From positions 62,001-92,214 of the forward strand of contig JALDZX010000070.1 of assembly GCA_022813865.1 (NCBI GenBank): a DNA stretch of 30,214 nucleotides, read 5' to 3'. Under the pieces are notes generated by a model. That model searched no databases. It saw nothing but the letters and a program-made list of their open reading frames with translations, and was not told the origin of the DNA. Origin of the DNA: Xylographa opegraphella. Taxonomy: Eukaryota. Each line of letters begins with the position of its first letter. The stretch's first letter is position 1. The position numbers and the translations under genes were made by a program. This document shows positions 1,439 to 29,915 of this stretch, piece after piece.

Positions 1439-2837
1439 ATGGGCAGACACTCTTCCTTCCACCACCACCACCACCACCGTTCCTCCTCCACCGTGACACC
1501 CTCCGTGCAGACGCTGCGCCGCATCCGCGCCCTCAGCGACGACCACGAGCTTGACGGCGGCAAGGCGACGACGACATCGGCGGGCAAGAGCTGGGAGTGG
1601 GAACGCTGGGACTTCGTCGACGCGCAGGCGGGCGTGCTGGGTTCCGTGGGCGCGCGCATCGAGCTCGGGGCTGGGTTGGAGAGGATTGGGGGCTGGATAC
1701 CCGGGCTGAAGGGGACGGCGGGTGAGTGGAGCTCCTGCAGTGGTCGGGCTTGGAAATTGGGGTGCCGGGCGTAAAACGGGGGCAGGAAGGGCGATGGACT
1801 GCAGGTTTGGAAAGCGTCGAAGGCTGACTTCCCGTGCAGCTTTCCTCTCGACGCTGCGCCAGAACCTCACGCTCACGACCTCGCTCCTGCCGCCGGACTC
1901 GCCCGCCACCACGGCCTCGAGTATGTCGACCCCGCCGTCGCTGCACTCGTCCGCCACGCTGCCCCCGCCGTCTCCGCTGTCCGCATCGCCACTCACCCCG
2001 CCCTCCTCCTCATCCACATCCTCTCCCTTGTCCGCCACCCCTCCCCCCACCTTCACCACGCCCGCCGCCGCCGATGACCTCCCCCCCCTCACCACCATCC
2101 CCGCCACGACCTCCGCGCACAAACACGCCGCCCTGCACCTCCTCGCCTCCTCCCTCGCCCAGCGGCGCCAACTAGCGAGCGCGCTCATCATCCGCTCCAC
2201 GCCCTTCCTCGCCCTCGCCGCCCTCGCGCTCGCCATGCTGGTGCAGACCACCTACGCCGGGCGGGCCTCCGTGCCGCTCATCGTGACGACCTTCGCCGGC
2301 ATTGTCATGGCGCTGCTGCTCGGCGTGCGCTGGCTCGCGGGCGGCTACCTCGACCTCGCCGAGCGCGTCGACTGGGCCTGGCTGGCCGAGGACGAGGTGT
2401 GGGTGAGCCTGTGGGGCGTGGACGAGGCCGTCGTCGGCGCGGCGGTCGTGCGCACGGAACGCGAGCGTACCGGGAAGAGGAGGAGGAGGGGCGTGCTGCG
2501 CGGGTGGACCGTGAGGTTGCGCGAGCGGGGCAGGGGCGTCGGCAGGGGCTTGATGGAGGCCGTGGCCGGGGTGGGCAGGGAGAGGGGGTGGGAGGGGCTA
2601 GAGTTTGAGGATGGGGGCGTTTGTGGGTTTTTCCTCTCGCTTTCTCGTTTTTTTTAGGGGGTTTTTTTTGCGCTTCCTTGAGCGTGCGGTTGGCTGACTT
2701 TGGGTACGGTGCGCTTAGTCGATGAGAGGGTGTTGCCGAAGATGTTCCATGCCGAGTTTGAGCGACGGGCGGCGCGAGGGAGGGCTTTGCTGGAGGAGGT
2801 GTGGGTGGAGCAGGGGGGGAGGAAGAGGAGTCGGTAG
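1439..2837 (+). CDS. Fungal GNAT-fold (acetyltransferase-like) protein with two TM helices. Exons 1439-1721, 1840-2622, 2719-2837
   Basis: Introns 1722-1839 (GTGAGT..GCTGAC..CAG) and 2623-2718 (GTGGGT..GCTGAC..TAG) keep the frame. The protein has ALHLLASSLAQRRQLAS, a hydrophobic hairpin, and an acetyl-CoA-binding-like motif LRGWTVRLRERGRGVGRGLME. It ends RVLPKMFHAEFE...RKRSR*. The start is uncertain and could be the internal MSTPP ATG near 1923. Confidence 0.7.
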
Positions 2838-3187: not shown

Positions 3188-4264
3188 CTAACGACGGGCG
3201 GCTACTCGAGCCTTCGGCCTCGCCAAGCTTTTGGTGACGTCCGGATCGAAACCTTTGACTCGAGTCAGTAACTGATGGCATTCCAGGAACGAAGATATTT
3301 CGCTTGCGTACCATATATGGGATTCCCGAGCTAACGTAGAGCAAAGCAAGGCGTGTTAGCGAATGGTATCGGATGAAATGTGAGATCATGGGATGATAGA
3401 GGTGTCGACGTACCCTCTTTAATGCAAAGATGACCTGTGCCTTGTCAGAATGGGTGGTGAGTCAAGTGGGTCAATTGTAGCTTACATCGGACACTGTGAC
3501 GGCTGTACGAAGACAAATGATCAGTTTCAAGCAGCCTCAAGCGCAGAAAGAACTGCACTATCCGGTATGGTTTGTGGTAGTCTACATACTTTTCCGCTTA
3601 GAGTGCTCCACGAATATGACGCAATCTCGGATGAGCTGAAAGTTTGACATGTTAGCTAAGAGCTCGGCTCGGCGAAGCTTGACTTACGACTTCGAGTCTA
3701 TTCTTGAGAGCTGCCCTGACCTCTGGGTAGATCATGGCGGAGATGCGCTTGACACCTCCACGGCGGCCAAGACGTCTAATGGAATCAGAGAATTAGTGAT
3801 TGGCTGATTTGCTTTGGATACGAGTGAATTGCCCTTAGAATACCATAACTACAAGGGCCAAGTCTCAAATAGATGATCCGGCATCAAGATAAAGGAAAGA
3901 AACAAATTGGCACCTCACGCTAACAACGAGAGAGGTCCATACCTAATATCTCCTTTCGCTACATGACCACACCGAAGTCAGACCCCAACCAATCGAAAGA
4001 GCCCGTACTAGCAAAAGAGCACTCACTAATGCCACAGATGTTATCGCGTAGAACCTTGCTACTCAAAATAAGTATCTATACCTAGAGATAGGACGAATGC
4101 GGTCCTAATACATATCGGCCTATTCTAAGCAAGACGTACCGATGGCGTCGTGTTCCCGTCAGGCCCTTTCCCAGGCCTCCTGACTTAATGACTGTGATCT
4201 CTTTCCCTCCTGTGCTCTTGCCACCCACATGGTGGCTGGAGTTCGGGCCCCAGGTGGGACGCAT
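3188..4264 (-). CDS. Divergent histone H4 variant (H4v/H4E-like), 142 aa, 9 exons: 4264-4140, 4058-4027, 3958-3943, 3775-3688, 3635-3590, 3502-3486, 3434-3414, 3330-3312, 3252-3188
   Basis: Eight GT-AG introns, most with clear branch sites, give a 429-nt in-frame [145 protein letters not shown]. It is colinear with canonical H4 ([31 protein letters not shown]...HAKRKTVT..DVVYALKRQGRTLYGF). Confidence 0.93.
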
Positions 4265-4622: not shown

Positions 4623-5887
4623 TCACGACGACAGAGTCCCCCCACTCCCACCAACGTATCCATCCAACGCCTTCAAGCAGCTTTCTAGCGCCAGCGCCCC
4701 CTCATCCCGGCCTTCCCCTTCCTCACAATCCTCCACCACAAAATCAAACCCATGATCCTTCCCCTCCACCGCAAAGTAATCCACCCTTCCCCCCACAGCC
4801 TTCACCCGCTCCACCAACCTCTCACTCTCCTCCACGCCGACCCCACGGTCCTTGGTCCCATGCACCACCACTAGCGGCGGATACTCCCTTGTGATGCCAA
4901 AATCCAAGGGGAACAACTCATGCATCGCCTCCGTCATCACCTTCTCTCTCCCCTCGTTCCGCACTCTCTCTCCCAATCCTTTGATTCCTGTGACGTAATC
5001 CGCGAATAACCCCTCCTGCAGTATATACCGCAGATACGGATACCGCTGATGCGTACTCATATCACCGTCCTTCGGGAACGTCTCCCCGAAACTAATCTCG
5101 CCATTCGCCTTCCGCTGCTCCATCTCCTTCAGCGTCGGGGCCGCATCCTCCACCTTGACATCCGGCAGAGGGATCCCCGGCGTGATCCAGCGCTCCGCCG
5201 CCGGGTCCACAATCGGATAAATCGCCCAGACAGCTTTGGGCACTGGGTTGTGGAACTGCGCGCCTCCGAGAACAGCGCAGTATCCACCGCCACTGGAACC
5301 GGTGACAATGAGCCGCGACGGGTCAACGAGGTTGGGAAAGTGCGTGTTGAGCTCGGTGGCCACCCAAGCGTAGGCGGAGCGGAGATCGGCAAGAAGATCG
5401 TGGCCAGTGGATTCAGGGAGAACACGATAGTCGGCGCTGACGAAGGTCCAGTGACGACGGAGAGATGCTTGGAGAAGCCATGGGCGGACGGCGGCGCGGG
5501 AGCCGCTGATCTGAGAGATATTCAGTAAGGGTTTTGGGACAAGACCCCCGGCAAACATGCAGAAAGGGCGGGAAAATAGTCGGCTCATTTGAGAAGTTCT
5601 CAGTACAAAAGACTACCGCACATGCCACGACCTCCAAATACCCAACACCAGTGCAAAACAACTAAAATGCGAGAAATTGCATCACAATAGTGCTCTCCAT
5701 GAGGTCCGCGTAATCACACCTGTACTAACATATAATGAAAAACACTCACGATATAACCACCATGGAAATAGAGTATCAACGGTCTGGGCGTCGTTGGCTT
5801 CGGATCGGTCACATAGACATCCAGCTCGATCGGCTTGCCCTGGACATGCTTATAAGCAAACGTGTGTACGGTGTGTGCAGGGACCAT
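4623..5887 (-). CDS. Alpha/beta hydrolase (HSL-like esterase). Exons 5887-5750 and 5510-4623
   Basis: Exon 1 is MVPAHTVHTFAYK...PLILYFHGGYI, joined through intron 5749-5511 (GTGAGT..CAG) to ISGSR. Motifs seen: HGG oxyanion, DYR, nucleophile elbow GSSGG, HGTKD and DHGFD. Confidence 0.85.
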
Positions 5888-23788: not shown

Positions 23789-24298
23789 CTTGAACGTTTA
23801 TGCTTGTCAGAGAGCAGATACGAAGGCCCTTCGAGGGTAGAAACGCTTCGGAAGCACAGAATGTTGATACCTCTTGGTAAGCAAAACGAAAGAATGAAGT
23901 AAAGCTGCAACCCGGAGCAAATGCCAGCATTAATGGATTTGAAATGAAGAACTGGATCTTGTATGTTCGTACTGTCCTTTCGCTGTTCATAAAAAGAAGA
24001 GTTAGAATACGACGGAGTTGTCACAGCAACCGATCCCACCTCAGCCCTAGCCGTTGAACTCTGTGACAGGGATGAGCCTTGGTGCAACGTCACTGGCGCG
24101 CCTCAGATACGCGTGAGTTTCAACACCAGGTGTTTCTGCTTCCGGACCAGAACAACACCAGCCTCCATTTTCACACGGCATCGTTACTATTGCTACATGC
24201 ATTGATAGCGGGCGGCTTGTTAATTATCCAGCAACAGCGCCGTCATGCAATAAAAGCATTCCATAACATCCGGCTGTGTAAGGGCGTGGTGGGGAATA
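23789..24298. promoter_or_regulatory. Likely shared divergent promoter region of rho4 and nud1
   Basis: There are 510 bp between the head-to-head start codons. This is inferred from geometry only. Confidence 0.45.
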
Positions 24299-27200
24299 AT
24301 GGAGCTGGGATCACCCGAATCGCTGCCCTCCGAGGACTGGATCTCGCAACCCCGCTCTTCTGCTCCAGCATCGGAAAAGAATGATTCTTTTTCAGTCATA
24401 ACACACCCGAGCAATGTGACACAAAGCCGAATACCTCGCCTCAGCAGTCGATCCATATCCAATCCCAGTCTTCCCATAAGTCGCCTGCCGGGATCACCGA
24501 TGTCCCTGCCTGGTCATCGTCGAGGACCTGTTCTTGGCGAGCGCACAGCTTCCGACATAAATATCAGCCAGAGGCAAAGACATGGGCCTGCTACGAAATA
24601 TAACGGACTCCATGAAGGATCGATACGTTCGCCATTGGGACGGCCACAACACTCTGCCAAATCCAACAACTCGGCACCTCTAGGAACGGTGCAGATGAAA
24701 GATAAACCATCGTCAGATTACAGAGAGCTTAAACCACACGCGACACCCGAGTGGAAAAGAAGAGTTCTTGCCGGAGGTGGCACAACTGGTGGACAGCTAG
24801 ACTTATTCAGTCCTATAGGACTAGAATCCGTATTCAGAGCGCCAATCTCAAAACAACGTTCCTCGAAACAACAGCAAAGTTCAAGGGGCGGAGGTTTTGA
24901 GCCTACAGCAACGAGCGACTACCCCTCAAGCCCACCGCCACTTCCTTCAACTATGCCAGCACCAACTACAGGGAAGGAAGCAGGGCGTCAGAAATTTTCA
25001 GGCAACCCACACCCATCAGTTCCAATACCTGCTACTCGGAGTCGTGTCGAAAGTGGAGAAAGCGTGTCTCGTAATGAGGAAATCAGTCTTGTACAGGTTG
25101 CTAATGGACGAATCAATTATACGGCAAGCACTAGAACAGATAGTCGAGAGCTAAACAATAACGTCGGACAGAATCTAGGAAGGGGCCATACCCGAAGGTC
25201 CTCGCATTCGAATCCTAGCAGGCTCGGGCGATCGATGAGCTCTGCTAAGTCCCAATTACGCGAGGATGAACCATGTTTCGATCTGACGTCTCATTCTCTA
25301 CCTGAAGGACTGTCTATCGACACCGAGGCTTTTATATCCAAAGGTGGCTTCGTGAATGTTCTTCGTGGCGGCTGTCCAGTCGACGATTCATTTCAAAGGA
25401 GGCCCCTGAGCCCATCTTCCTTCCAACCTTCCGATATTCTAAGCTCGGTCCCAAATGCCAGATCTCAGGAAATTACTCAACATGGCGCTCCTAGTGATCT
25501 CTCACCACATCGCTCTGGTCTGAGCCCATTGCGAGCTCTGCCTACATCTACCGCCCCCCCGATCACCCCCACCAAAAATCAGTCTTATGATAACGAACCG
25601 CCGAAGTCTTCTGGTAGTCCTCTGAAATTGTTCGACGCATATGACACATACACAAATGACCGTCTCATACGACGAATGAGCCAATTCGCCGAGGGGATCC
25701 CAGATAGCCCTGACAATGATCTGCTTAGGAATGAACAGCACAGCAGTCCATCATCGCATATGTTGCTTCATAGCAAGAAGTCAATTGGGTCAAATGAGGA
25801 GCGAAGAGCGACCAGCTTTGGGTCAGGCGATTTTGATGAATACGATTTTACACATCGTCAACTGGCCGTTCTTGACCTGTCCTCTGATGGCTGTGGGGAT
25901 GTTCAGGAAACATCGCCGACGCTTCCGGATATACAGGGAAGGCCTCTATCGCGGAAGAGGTCTAATCAATTGTCTGTTGTAAGCTCGCAAATACGTCGGG
26001 GGACCTTGACGATACCATATGACCAGAAGCTGAAGCTCCGGGCTGAAATTTCTTTCTCTAAGCAACCACGACTTGTTTCGAATGAAGATGATTTGCACGG
26101 TGCGGAAGCTGTCAAGACCGCATCTCTCGAGCTTGCCCGTGAGTACCATAATACACACAACTTTGAGGGCAAACGTTTTCCATCTTCACCCATTCGTGAT
26201 CCTACCCCTAAGCGCCGGCGTACGATCACCCGCTCATTGCATGAAGCCGAAAACGGTTCAAATTCGATGGTTGGGTTCTCTGCTACAACGTCGATTGTGA
26301 GCCGAAAACGTAAAGACGCACGGTATGACAGTATCAGTCAAGTAGCCGATCCTAAAGTACTAGCTTCGCGTTCTATGTTACGCCCACGAATGTCGTCTTC
26401 GAATCAAATGCAAAACACTTACGGAGAAGCTTCAATTCAGCAACCGAAAGGATTTGCTATTCATGGACAAACTGGCGCCTCATCCACACAGCTAGCAACG
26501 ATGTCACATATACGTTCGACCCTAGACGATGCGCCTATTCAAGCACTTGCTGGAGAGCTGGCTCATTTTGCTTACGATGTAGCCCAGGATATCACAAATG
26601 GAGACCGCAAAACCTCAGTGACAACCGCCGATTTTACCACTGCAGCAAATTTGATTATGCAGAACATTCGTGCTCAAGCTAGGCCGCGAAGTGGCCGCAC
26701 GAGTGGGGAGGAGTCGGAAATGGAACCACTTGCCCTTATAGAAGAATCAGTAAACGAAGGATCCACAATTGAAGAATTCTCGAGACCTCCAAGCAGAGTC
26801 CGTGGAGGTACATTGCGGAGATTAAGAGATACCAAACAGCTGGATCCAAGAGTCATCAGCCATCTTCGAAAGTTCGAAGAACACGATGAGACCGGTATTG
26901 TGCTCTCTTCATCATTACGGTCCTTGAAGCTTGGGCACGAAAATGTATCTATAGACTCTCTTATTGTGGACAGTGACCCTCCGAACATCCGCATCCGTAA
27001 TAGTCTAGATGTCCTTCATGTTGACGATCGAAGGGACGGTATTGACAAAAGTATCAGCGAAGGACCTGCTAAGGGGCGCCAAAGCACTTCGCATCCCTCC
27101 AAGTCTTCCTCTGGGCCGTCAACTACACGGTCTATTCCCACAGGTTCGTCCAGCGGATCTGGTAACAAAGCGATGATAGCCCCCGACAAAGTCTCACATC

Positions 27201-29915
27201 TCATTTCTGACAACATCGGTGGCATGACCTTTGATCGAACAAGACAGGTATGGACCCGCAAAAGGAGTGCCGACAACACGAGCAATGAAGATCTGGATAG
27301 GCATGAGAGTGAGCTCACCGAGGATGATCCCCTGAAAGAAATCCCAGATCTGAGTGTTGATGAGCTTGAAGAGTTGAAACGAATCCAGAACACTACTATG
27401 AGTTTACAACCATCGACAACGCACCTACAAAGTAACGATAGCGCACGAGCTGGTGTGAAATGCCTTCCGCCAGACGGGCTTGAACTTCACCCTCCAGCAC
27501 CATCGCCTGAGTCGAATTCCTCGATACCATCAAAACACCCCGACATAGTATCTAACACATCGAGAATGGAAACTGCAGCGACATCGTTAGAACATCAAAC
27601 ACCAACGAACGGGAACATCTTGCATGAGTCAGATGAAGTCCCGGAAATACCGGAGGAGCGGCGAAGTGCAGATTTTGAAGAGGTTGAACATGAGATCAGT
27701 ATCCTGGAAGGTCGTCGCCCAATCACCCCCAAGCGGCACTATCAAAGACACCGACAGCCGCGCGTAGTCACCGTTGCGTTTTCTTCGCCACTGACTGTCC
27801 CGGTGCCGATGGAGGAAATAGGCGCACATGGGTTTGAGGAGATATGGGAAGATAATAGTGATCTCAATTCTGATTGCTCGCCTGACGTGCAAAGACTCGA
27901 AAAGTATCATACTTATTCGAGGAAAGTATCCATTGGGTACCGATCCCGTGGAAGTTTACGAGCACGACGCAGGGTGTCGGCTTCCAAACGGAACTTTACC
28001 ACACGTCCTGTTTCTCGGATTGATGAAAACGACGAATTGTCTATGGATCAGAACAGTGATCAAATTGGAAAACGGAGCACAGGCGTCATCGTATCCACTC
28101 CTCAACACTTTGGCTACCGTCCAAGCGACATATCAATGCATTCGCTTTCTACAGGCCTTCATTCGAACATAAGTTTTCATTTGAGCCCATTGTCAGACTT
28201 CACAATACATCATGAAGATGTCATTAAGCCACTTGCGCAAGAAAGTCGGATCAGGCGATATTTGTCGTTGCACGAATGTGAAGAAAAGTATTCTCTTGCG
28301 ATCAAGGAACTTGTGGAGAAAATAACTGATGTTGAGCCTTACGAGCCATACTGGGAATGTATACGCAAGCTCAACCTCCAGAGAAAGAGTCTCGCCACTC
28401 TTCATATGCTTGATGATTTTTGTGCTCGTATTGAAGAGCTCGATGTGTCTAACAACAACCTTGGACAATTAGACGGGGCGCCGTGCAGTGTTCGTGCCCT
28501 TCAAGTGCGCCATAATTGCCTCTCAAATCTTACAGCTTGGGGCCATCTTCACAACCTTCAATACCTTGACGTATCTGGGAACCAAATCCAAAGCCTTCGT
28601 GGTTTCAGCAGTCTCGTTCATCTACGTGAACTGACGGCCGATGATAATCAGATAGAATCGCTTGACGGCATTGCCAACCTTAATGGCCTCCTCAAACTGG
28701 GACTTAGAAGGAACGCGCTGAAAAGTCTCGACTTTAGCGGTTATGATCTGTATGTCGCTCTATGGTTTTCTTGCTGTACTGGTACTAATTTTTTCATAGG
28801 CAGCGATTGATCGAGTTAGACGTTCAAGATAACGAAGTTGCCAAGATTAGCGGTTTTCATGAACTGCCAGAGATTTCCCATCTGAACCTTCGTAATCCTC
28901 ACTAGCAATAGCTGAAAGTTGGCACGCTGACTCATCTCTAGGAAATAATAAGCTCACCGATTTTGCTAATGAGATGGCATTCGTGATGTCTACTCTCCGC
29001 TTCCTAGACATCTCTGACAACAATATCACCAACATGAACATAAGCAACTTCCCAAACTTACAAACCTTGTACCTCGACGACAACAATGTGATCCATATCA
29101 CAGGACTGCAATGTTTGGCCAGTATAACCACACTAAGCTGGCGAAATCAGACAATTTTAGGTATGAACGATAATGAATCGATTCAGCTCGAAGGCTGTTA
29201 CGATTTGAGAACATTGCAATTATCGGGAAACAAAATTCAATACTTTGATCCCAAGACAACCTTCCTCAATTTACAGAGACTCGAGCTTTCATCTGCTGGT
29301 CTTGCTTGTCTCTCCAAGGACTTCGGCATCCAAATGCCCAACTTGCGATTCTTGAATCTCAACAACAACGCTGTGAAGGACATTCGGCCTCTCCTGGGAA
29401 TCACAAAACTAAAGGAGCTACATATCGCATGCAATCGGATCTCAAGACTTCGTCGAACTACTGCTGTGCTACGTAAAGTGAGCGGAGCGCTCGAGTCAGT
29501 GGATCTGCGAGGCAATCCACTCACAGCTGGCTTTTATCGAAACTCTTCACTACCTTGCAATACACAGCGACAACTCGTTGTAAAAAATCATCAGGCACTC
29601 GAAAATGTGGAACATAAAAATGCTGAGCAATGTACTGCGGCCACTTACGTTATCCCGCTGGTTGACAGTGTAGCTGATCAGCAACATCGGGAGACTCTCA
29701 ATGAGGACACAGCATTGAGACGACGGGTGTACGAGATGCTTATCCTGGGAGGTTGTCATATGTTAAATCAACTGGACGGGCTTCCTGTTGAGAAGGGCAT
29801 GGTTGGAAGACGGGATGTGATCTGGGAACGATTGCTCGAATTAGGCGTCCTGAAGGAGAAGGATACGAAAGGCAAATCGGATTGGCTCGAAACAGGGACC
29901 TCGGAAAAGCAATGA
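24299..29915 (+). CDS. NUD1: Septation initiation network scaffold Nud1/Cdc11/SepK (LRR protein). Exons 24299-28749, 28800-28891, 28942-29915
   Basis: A long S/P-rich N-terminus carries conserved islands (SEDWISQ, TPEWKRR, DLFSPIGLESVF, SPLKLFDAYDTYTN, GMTFD..W, DVEPYEPYWE). C-terminal LRRs end in DLRGNPLTAGFY...RRRVYE...LDG. Introns 28750-28799 and 28892-28941 restore the frame. Confidence 0.9.

Follow-up and report, generated by a model that had tools for sequence, protein, structure and literature searches.

A nine-exon gene in the lichen-forming fungus Xylographa opegraphella that very probably encodes the Pezizomycotina histone H4 variant H4E/H4v

Canonical histone H4 is a protein of about 103 residues, and H3 and H4 are a textbook pair. 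A variant of H4 named H4E was described by Flipphi et al. 2024 (PMC10878826) as occurring throughout the Pezizomycotina, with the Neurospora crassa protein H4v named as its orthologue, and the accessible text of that paper calls the intron/exon structure of H4E genes "completely different" from what is seen in canonical H4 genes. In the typical H4E gene, as given there, a phase-2 intron is followed by a second exon of 29-32 nt, a phase-1 intron, a third exon of 16 nt, a phase-2 intron and a fourth exon of 88 nt, after which the introns are of phase 0. The running text places a 63-nt exon between phase-0 introns and the legend of Fig. 1 a 21-nt exon, and the early-diverging classes together with the Lecanoromycetes are reported to carry an extra phase-1 intron located 19 nt 3' of the last phase-0 intron (PMC10878826). 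For one species, the same legend gives "60, 18 and 21", figures that are hard to square with the running text of the paper. In Aspergillus nidulans, H4E is reported to be nuclear, to interact with H3 and to be induced at 37 C upon nitrogen starvation, to be unable to replace canonical H4.1, and to show no visible phenotype when deleted (PMC10878826). For the N. crassa orthologue, the accessible part of a preprint (bioRxiv 10.64898/2026.08.11.744009) reports that H4v is present in MNase-resistant nucleosomes and in a complex with H3 and ASF1, that its deposition occurs only with the ATRX orthologue SAD-6 present, and that a perturbed tetO array requires it for both silencing and H3K9me3.

Here we describe a locus of Xylographa opegraphella, a lichen-forming fungus of the Lecanoromycetes (Baeomycetales), which lies in a window of 30,214 nucleotides, the whole stretch of DNA that was analysed and to which all positions refer. 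We consider it very likely that this locus is the X. opegraphella orthologue of the Pezizomycotina H4 variant H4E/H4v, an intact gene whose nine exons, separated by eight introns, encode 142 residues, with a function of the Neurospora type ascribed to it by orthology. The H4E/H4v family as such, including the tails and the richness in introns, has been published before (PMC10878826). When the nine minus-strand stretches between 4264 and 3188 were joined by coordinate, they gave 429 nt, that is 142 codons and a TAG stop (Table 1), and everything that the original prediction had said about the gene model was correct on rejoining: the nine exons, the micro-exons of 16, 17, 19 and 21 nt, the GT-AG junctions, the phase arithmetic and the coordinates. 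The introns, all eight of them GT-AG, range in length from 51 to 167 nt, and their donors (GTACGT, GTGAGT, GTATGG, GTAAGT, GTATGT, GTAAGC, GTACGT and GTACGC for introns 1-8) are of the fungal GTANGT type, with CTAAC/CTGAC-like branch motifs that can be recognised by eye 5' of the acceptor in most introns.

Table 1. Exons of the H4-variant gene, listed 5' to 3' along the minus strand, and the neighbouring open reading frames in the window.
Feature	Position	Strand	Length (nt)	Description
Exon 1	4140..4264	-	125	ATG and variant-specific N-terminal tail; ends at phase-2 donor GTACGT; 100% match to MMC26_006861
Exon 2	4027..4058	-	32	encodes (R), 10 residues, (T); absent from the public 126-aa model; 9/10 residues identical to P0003
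Exon 3	3943..3958	-	16	micro-exon; encodes (T)KGDI(R); absent from the public 126-aa model; 6/6 residues identical to P0003
Exon 4	3688..3775	-	88	encodes 29 residues; phase-0 intron next
Exon 5	3590..3635	-	46	first part of the 63-nt exon of the H4E family; ends at phase-1 intron 5
Exon 6	3486..3502	-	17	micro-exon; encodes (T)VTVSD; 6/6 residues identical to P0003
Exon 7	3414..3434	-	21	micro-exon; encodes VIFALKR; 7/7 residues identical to P0003
Exon 8	3312..3330	-	19	micro-exon; encodes LGNPIY(G); 6/6 residues identical to P0003; phase-1 intron next
Exon 9	3188..3252	-	65	C-terminal extension, (G) and 20 residues, and TAG; aligns with C-termini of Xylographa-group relatives
GNAT acetyltransferase-domain ORF	1710-2654	+		28.4 bits; convergent to the H4-variant gene, ~530 nt between stop codons
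alpha/beta-hydrolase-domain ORF	4626-5612	-		same direction as the H4-variant gene

Judged from the sequence, the nine-exon model is more than a chance assembly. In the six-frame translation of the 30-kb window there is a single match to each of the peptides encoded by exon 2 and by the four micro-exons, located at the respective exon and colinear with the others, and 200 block-shuffled windows gave 0-0.165 matches per peptide. All four micro-exons agree at every residue with an independent relative, P0003 (Table 1), and the whole 142-aa product is identical to this protein at 115 of 142 positions. Furthermore, the retention of a single intron would lead to a premature stop for seven of the eight introns.

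The translation of exon 1 (P0001) has a single longer match of 100% identity, MCJ1287509.1 (MMC26_006861), a 126-aa "hypothetical protein" of X. opegraphella, so that the gene, which had been predicted to be hidden in an apparently empty gap, already has a model in GenBank. The accompanying expectation that an automated annotation would overlook it or break it up was largely right, as the GenBank model skips two exons and two congeners, X. bjoerkii and X. carneopallida, are represented by models of 70 aa that start inside exon 4 (P0015 and P0017). The model MMC26_006861 consists of exons 1 and 4-9, three of the four micro-exons included, with exon 1 joined straight to exon 4, and in the alignment it is without the 16 residues encoded by exons 2 and 3.

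That the protein belongs to the H4 family can be seen already from this shortened model (P0002), whose best matches in the PDB by phmmer are all histone H4 (E 2e-23, residues 41-107), with a core identity to the PDB H4 chains of ~60% over the same residues. The 126-aa model misses the gathering cut-offs of Pfam for both Histone (PF00125; 18.1 vs 26.4 bits) and CENP-T_C (PF15511; 19.2 vs 28.1 bits), TAF (PF02969; 22.3 bits) being the sole Pfam model that it passes. The same pattern, with Histone and CENP-T_C below the cut-off and TAF alone above it, is found for the full-length relatives and for the N. crassa protein. The sub-threshold scores show that those profiles perform poorly on the H4 variant and are not evidence against the fold, and the label "hypothetical protein" is probably a consequence of them. 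A word-index search returned 375 proteins at E<=0.001, and the 120 of these that were listed are mostly Pezizomycotina proteins of 120-165 aa; among the matches listed are members of the Sordariomycetes, the Leotiomycetes, the Pezizomycetes (Tuber, Morchella, Geopyxis), the Dothideomycetes and the Lecanoromycetes (Lambiella, Lepraria, Xanthoria). They also include the 163-aa N. crassa protein P0031, which from its organism, length and description we take to be H4v.

We then compared the product with both kinds of H4 in a quick maximum-likelihood tree of 50 rows, namely the 142-aa product, 27 variant-type and 22 canonical-type sequences, the source of the canonical-type rows being a search of representatives with 4448 matches at E<=0.001, of which 2131 reached E<=1e-10, a mixture of canonical and variant H4. 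The split between variant and canonical sequences received an SH-aLRT of 98, and the product was placed outside the canonical side, among the variants, adjoining P0003 and P0004 and then Lambiella. H4 phylogenies are described as unstable by the authors of PMC10878826. At the eight diagnostic columns, where the 80% consensus of variant and canonical H4 differs, the product is variant-like at six, canonical-like at one and like neither at one, a count with some circularity at one or two columns, as the canonical rows were chosen by motif and one diagnostic column lies inside the sorting motif. At the columns where the consensus is common to variant and canonical H4, the product keeps 31 of 32. 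Neither consensus includes the Xylographa-group rows, which had been set aside on purpose. Taken with the listed relatives and with the match to published exon lengths and phases described below, the tree bears out the proposal that the gene belongs to the divergent lineage of H4 found in filamentous ascomycetes.

Some of these features could also be expected of a decaying duplicate of canonical H4, in other words of a pseudogene. The alignment shows that the tails of the 142-aa product are longer and divergent at both the N- and the C-terminus, the product and its counterpart in the congener X. trunciseda are identical at only 113/141 residues, and the Histone and CENP-T_C scores lie under threshold. 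We nevertheless regard decay as extremely improbable, since the frame of 142 codons is intact with canonical ends at all eight introns, the columns shared by variant and canonical H4 are kept and the diagnostic columns are mostly variant-like at the counts given above, orthologues are present across many classes among the matches listed, and the architecture of the gene is that of the old and conserved H4E family and unlike that of canonical H4 in the accessible text of PMC10878826. The identity of 113/141 to X. trunciseda indicates that the variant evolves much faster than canonical H4 would.

The predicted fold is compatible with a reading of the locus as an H4 variant. An AF2 run was made on the closest full-length stand-in, P0271, which shares 116 of 140 aligned residues with the 142-aa product, with an alignment of 40 rows, and it gave a model with a mean pLDDT of 66.8 and of 80-92 in the core. 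Helices are predicted at residues 55-63, 66-100 and 107-116, a further short one lies in the C-terminal extension at 126-133, and the best Foldseek matches of the model are nucleosomal H4 chains (probability 1.00, ~60% identity), so that this predicted structure supports an H4 fold for the variant.

The model also bears on the two exons that the public annotation leaves out. Exons 2 and 3 have a joint length of 48 nt, which means that skipping both does not disturb the frame, and the identical 16-residue gap recurs in the public models of Sordaria macrospora (P0005) and of an Aureobasidium pullulans MAG (P0070). The 126-aa model could accordingly be correct, or the two exons could be skipped in a regulated manner to give an in-frame isoform minus 16 residues, which would amount to the splicing-level control that had been suggested for this gene; if true, this would produce a variant without the segment equivalent to K20-R35, a splicing switch on a histone. 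We hold this to be very unlikely. The 16 residues fit the family, at 9/10 and 6/6 positions against P0003, and the segment RKVLRDNI.GITKGDIR is found ungapped in P0003 (JGI, 142 aa), P0004 (JGI, 124 aa), P0271 (Logan, 141 aa) and P0270 (142 aa), the last being X. trunciseda MMC11_001625; in all, the exon 2-3 residues are kept in four of four full-length Xylographa-group relatives and also in N. crassa P0031. In the AF2 model of P0271 the helix predicted at 55-63 starts within the exon-3 residues, which include the start of helix alpha-1, so that the 126-aa model would cut into this helix. For A. nidulans H4E, moreover, a manually deduced multi-intron model was confirmed by sequencing of RT-PCR products and the database model was wrong (PMC10878826). 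The repeated 16-residue gaps, together with the 70-aa models, suggest that gene finders repeatedly mishandle the 16-32-nt exons of H4E, a weakness that fits the recurrence of the gap in predicted models better than biology does. The absence of exons 2 and 3 from the public 126-aa model is therefore most likely an error of gene prediction, and MMC26_006861 is due for correction from 126 to 142 aa and for the name histone H4 variant.

With both exons in place, the architecture of the gene can be set against the published H4E model. The internal exons of X. opegraphella, of 32, 16, 88, 46+17=63, 21 and 19 nt, with intron phases 2, 1, 2, 0, (1), 0, 0 and 1 for introns 1-8, match the H4E structure given in the accessible parts of PMC10878826 plus one extra intron, the phase-1 intron 5 in brackets. 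The extreme intron density to which attention had been drawn thus stands as a description, with eight introns in 429 nt, and falls as something special to the X. opegraphella gene, as such a density is the norm of published H4E genes (PMC10878826).

A metagenome scan with P0003 returned 20 loci, most of which are canonical-type H4, and the 920-nt contig of P0003 itself was not returned. One of the loci (L019:9-340) is an environmental genomic H4E, in which by eye an 88-nt exon whose borders coincide with those of exon 4 of X. opegraphella is followed by an exon of 84 nt that corresponds to the 63- and 21-nt exons fused. This locus has no intron after GNPIYG in its last exon and is without equivalents of introns 5, 6 and 8. 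On another, a 1172-nt contig of the metagenome collection, an uninterrupted 142-aa ORF (L001:206-634) is nearly identical to the H4E of Tuber (P0114), a gene that is multi-intron according to PMC10878826, and from its sequence this ORF looks like a spliced transcript. A further match (L020:1516-1554) was considered as an H4 variant and rejected, being an LGNPIYGFDPD-like peptide inside an unrelated long frame on a GC-rich 60-kb contig and hence a chance match.

The additional intron 5 measures 87 nt (GTATGT...ACAG), lies in phase 1 and splits the 63-nt block of H4E into 46|17. Its placement is unambiguous under the GT-AG rule, it must be removed because its retention gives a stop at codon 105, and the public model MMC26_006861 removes it too. 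A split of the same block into 45|18 by a phase-0 intron "only occurs in Eurotiomycetes", usually with extra codons, according to PMC10878826, so that intron 5 lies one base away from an intron position described there as limited to Eurotiomycetes. Eurotiomycete H4E proteins with the insertion were looked for among the proteins retrieved, and none was present. The 46|17 split is absent from the running text of PMC10878826, in which "17 nt", "46 nt", "eight introns" and "nine exon" do not occur; it may be drawn in Fig. 1c of that paper. It is conceivable, though we would rather doubt it, that intron 5 (46|17, phase 1) is both real and an undescribed intron position in a Lecanoromycete. If this were true, it could be a shared ancestral intron displaced by one base, or else introns may have been gained at this site more than once.

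Turning to the surroundings of the gene, the original prediction had noted that no H3 is adjacent, and the same result was obtained across the whole 30-kb window, where tblastn with an H3 taken from one of the other loci (L007) gave 0 matches at E<=1. The nearby open reading frames carry other domains (Table 1). In Eurotiomycetes and Dothideomycetes, a nudA-hheA-svf1 synteny is reported (PMC10878826), and among the 12 large ORFs scanned in the window neither nudA nor svf1 was found. Further along, at 24254-29912 on the plus strand, there are two long open frames of 1518 and 339 aa with leucine-rich repeats, which are probably exons of one large gene.

What the protein may do can be proposed from its orthologues. 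By analogy with them, the X. opegraphella variant would pair with H3 and enter a subset of nucleosomes, and, as in Neurospora, ASF1 would bind it and its deposition would rely strictly on the ATRX orthologue SAD-6. Deposition could take place at perturbed or repetitive chromatin, where the variant would be needed for de novo H3K9me3 silencing, and the variant would be expected not to replace canonical H4. As a mechanism for the Xylographa protein, we hypothesise that SAD-6/ATRX-dependent deposition with H3 and ASF1 is the best candidate at hand and, as it comes by analogy from one preprint on one species, we give it about an even chance of being correct. Now that a function of this kind has been put forward for the orthologue in Neurospora, it is useful to have H4E/H4v documented in another lichen-forming fungus.

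Compared with canonical fungal H4, the X. opegraphella protein shares ~60% identity in the core and keeps the motifs RRGGVKRIS and KRKTVT, and it differs in its longer tails, in being variant-type at six of the eight diagnostic columns, in the eight-intron pattern of its gene and in not being paired with H3. With N. crassa H4v (hH4v, NCU04338) it has in common that both are orthologous variants, P0031 being identical to the product at 75 of 142 aligned residues and standing on the same side of the tree. The two differ in that the Neurospora protein, of 163 aa, has a longer and acidic C-terminal part, whereas the tail of the Xylographa protein is short and basic, and dependence on SAD-6, binding by ASF1 and post-translational modifications are known solely for Neurospora. 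The differences from the H4E family as described in the accessible text of PMC10878826 are the split of the 63-nt block into 46|17 by a phase-1 intron and neighbours other than nudA and svf1. In other respects the gene resembles A. nidulans H4E (hheA, AN12228) and the H4E family at large, with which it shares the H4 core, the longer divergent tails, the intron pattern, the Lecanoromycete phase-1 intron and the lack of a neighbouring H3 gene, and by eye the position of canonical K16 is occupied in X. opegraphella by Arg, as it is in many H4Es (PMC10878826).
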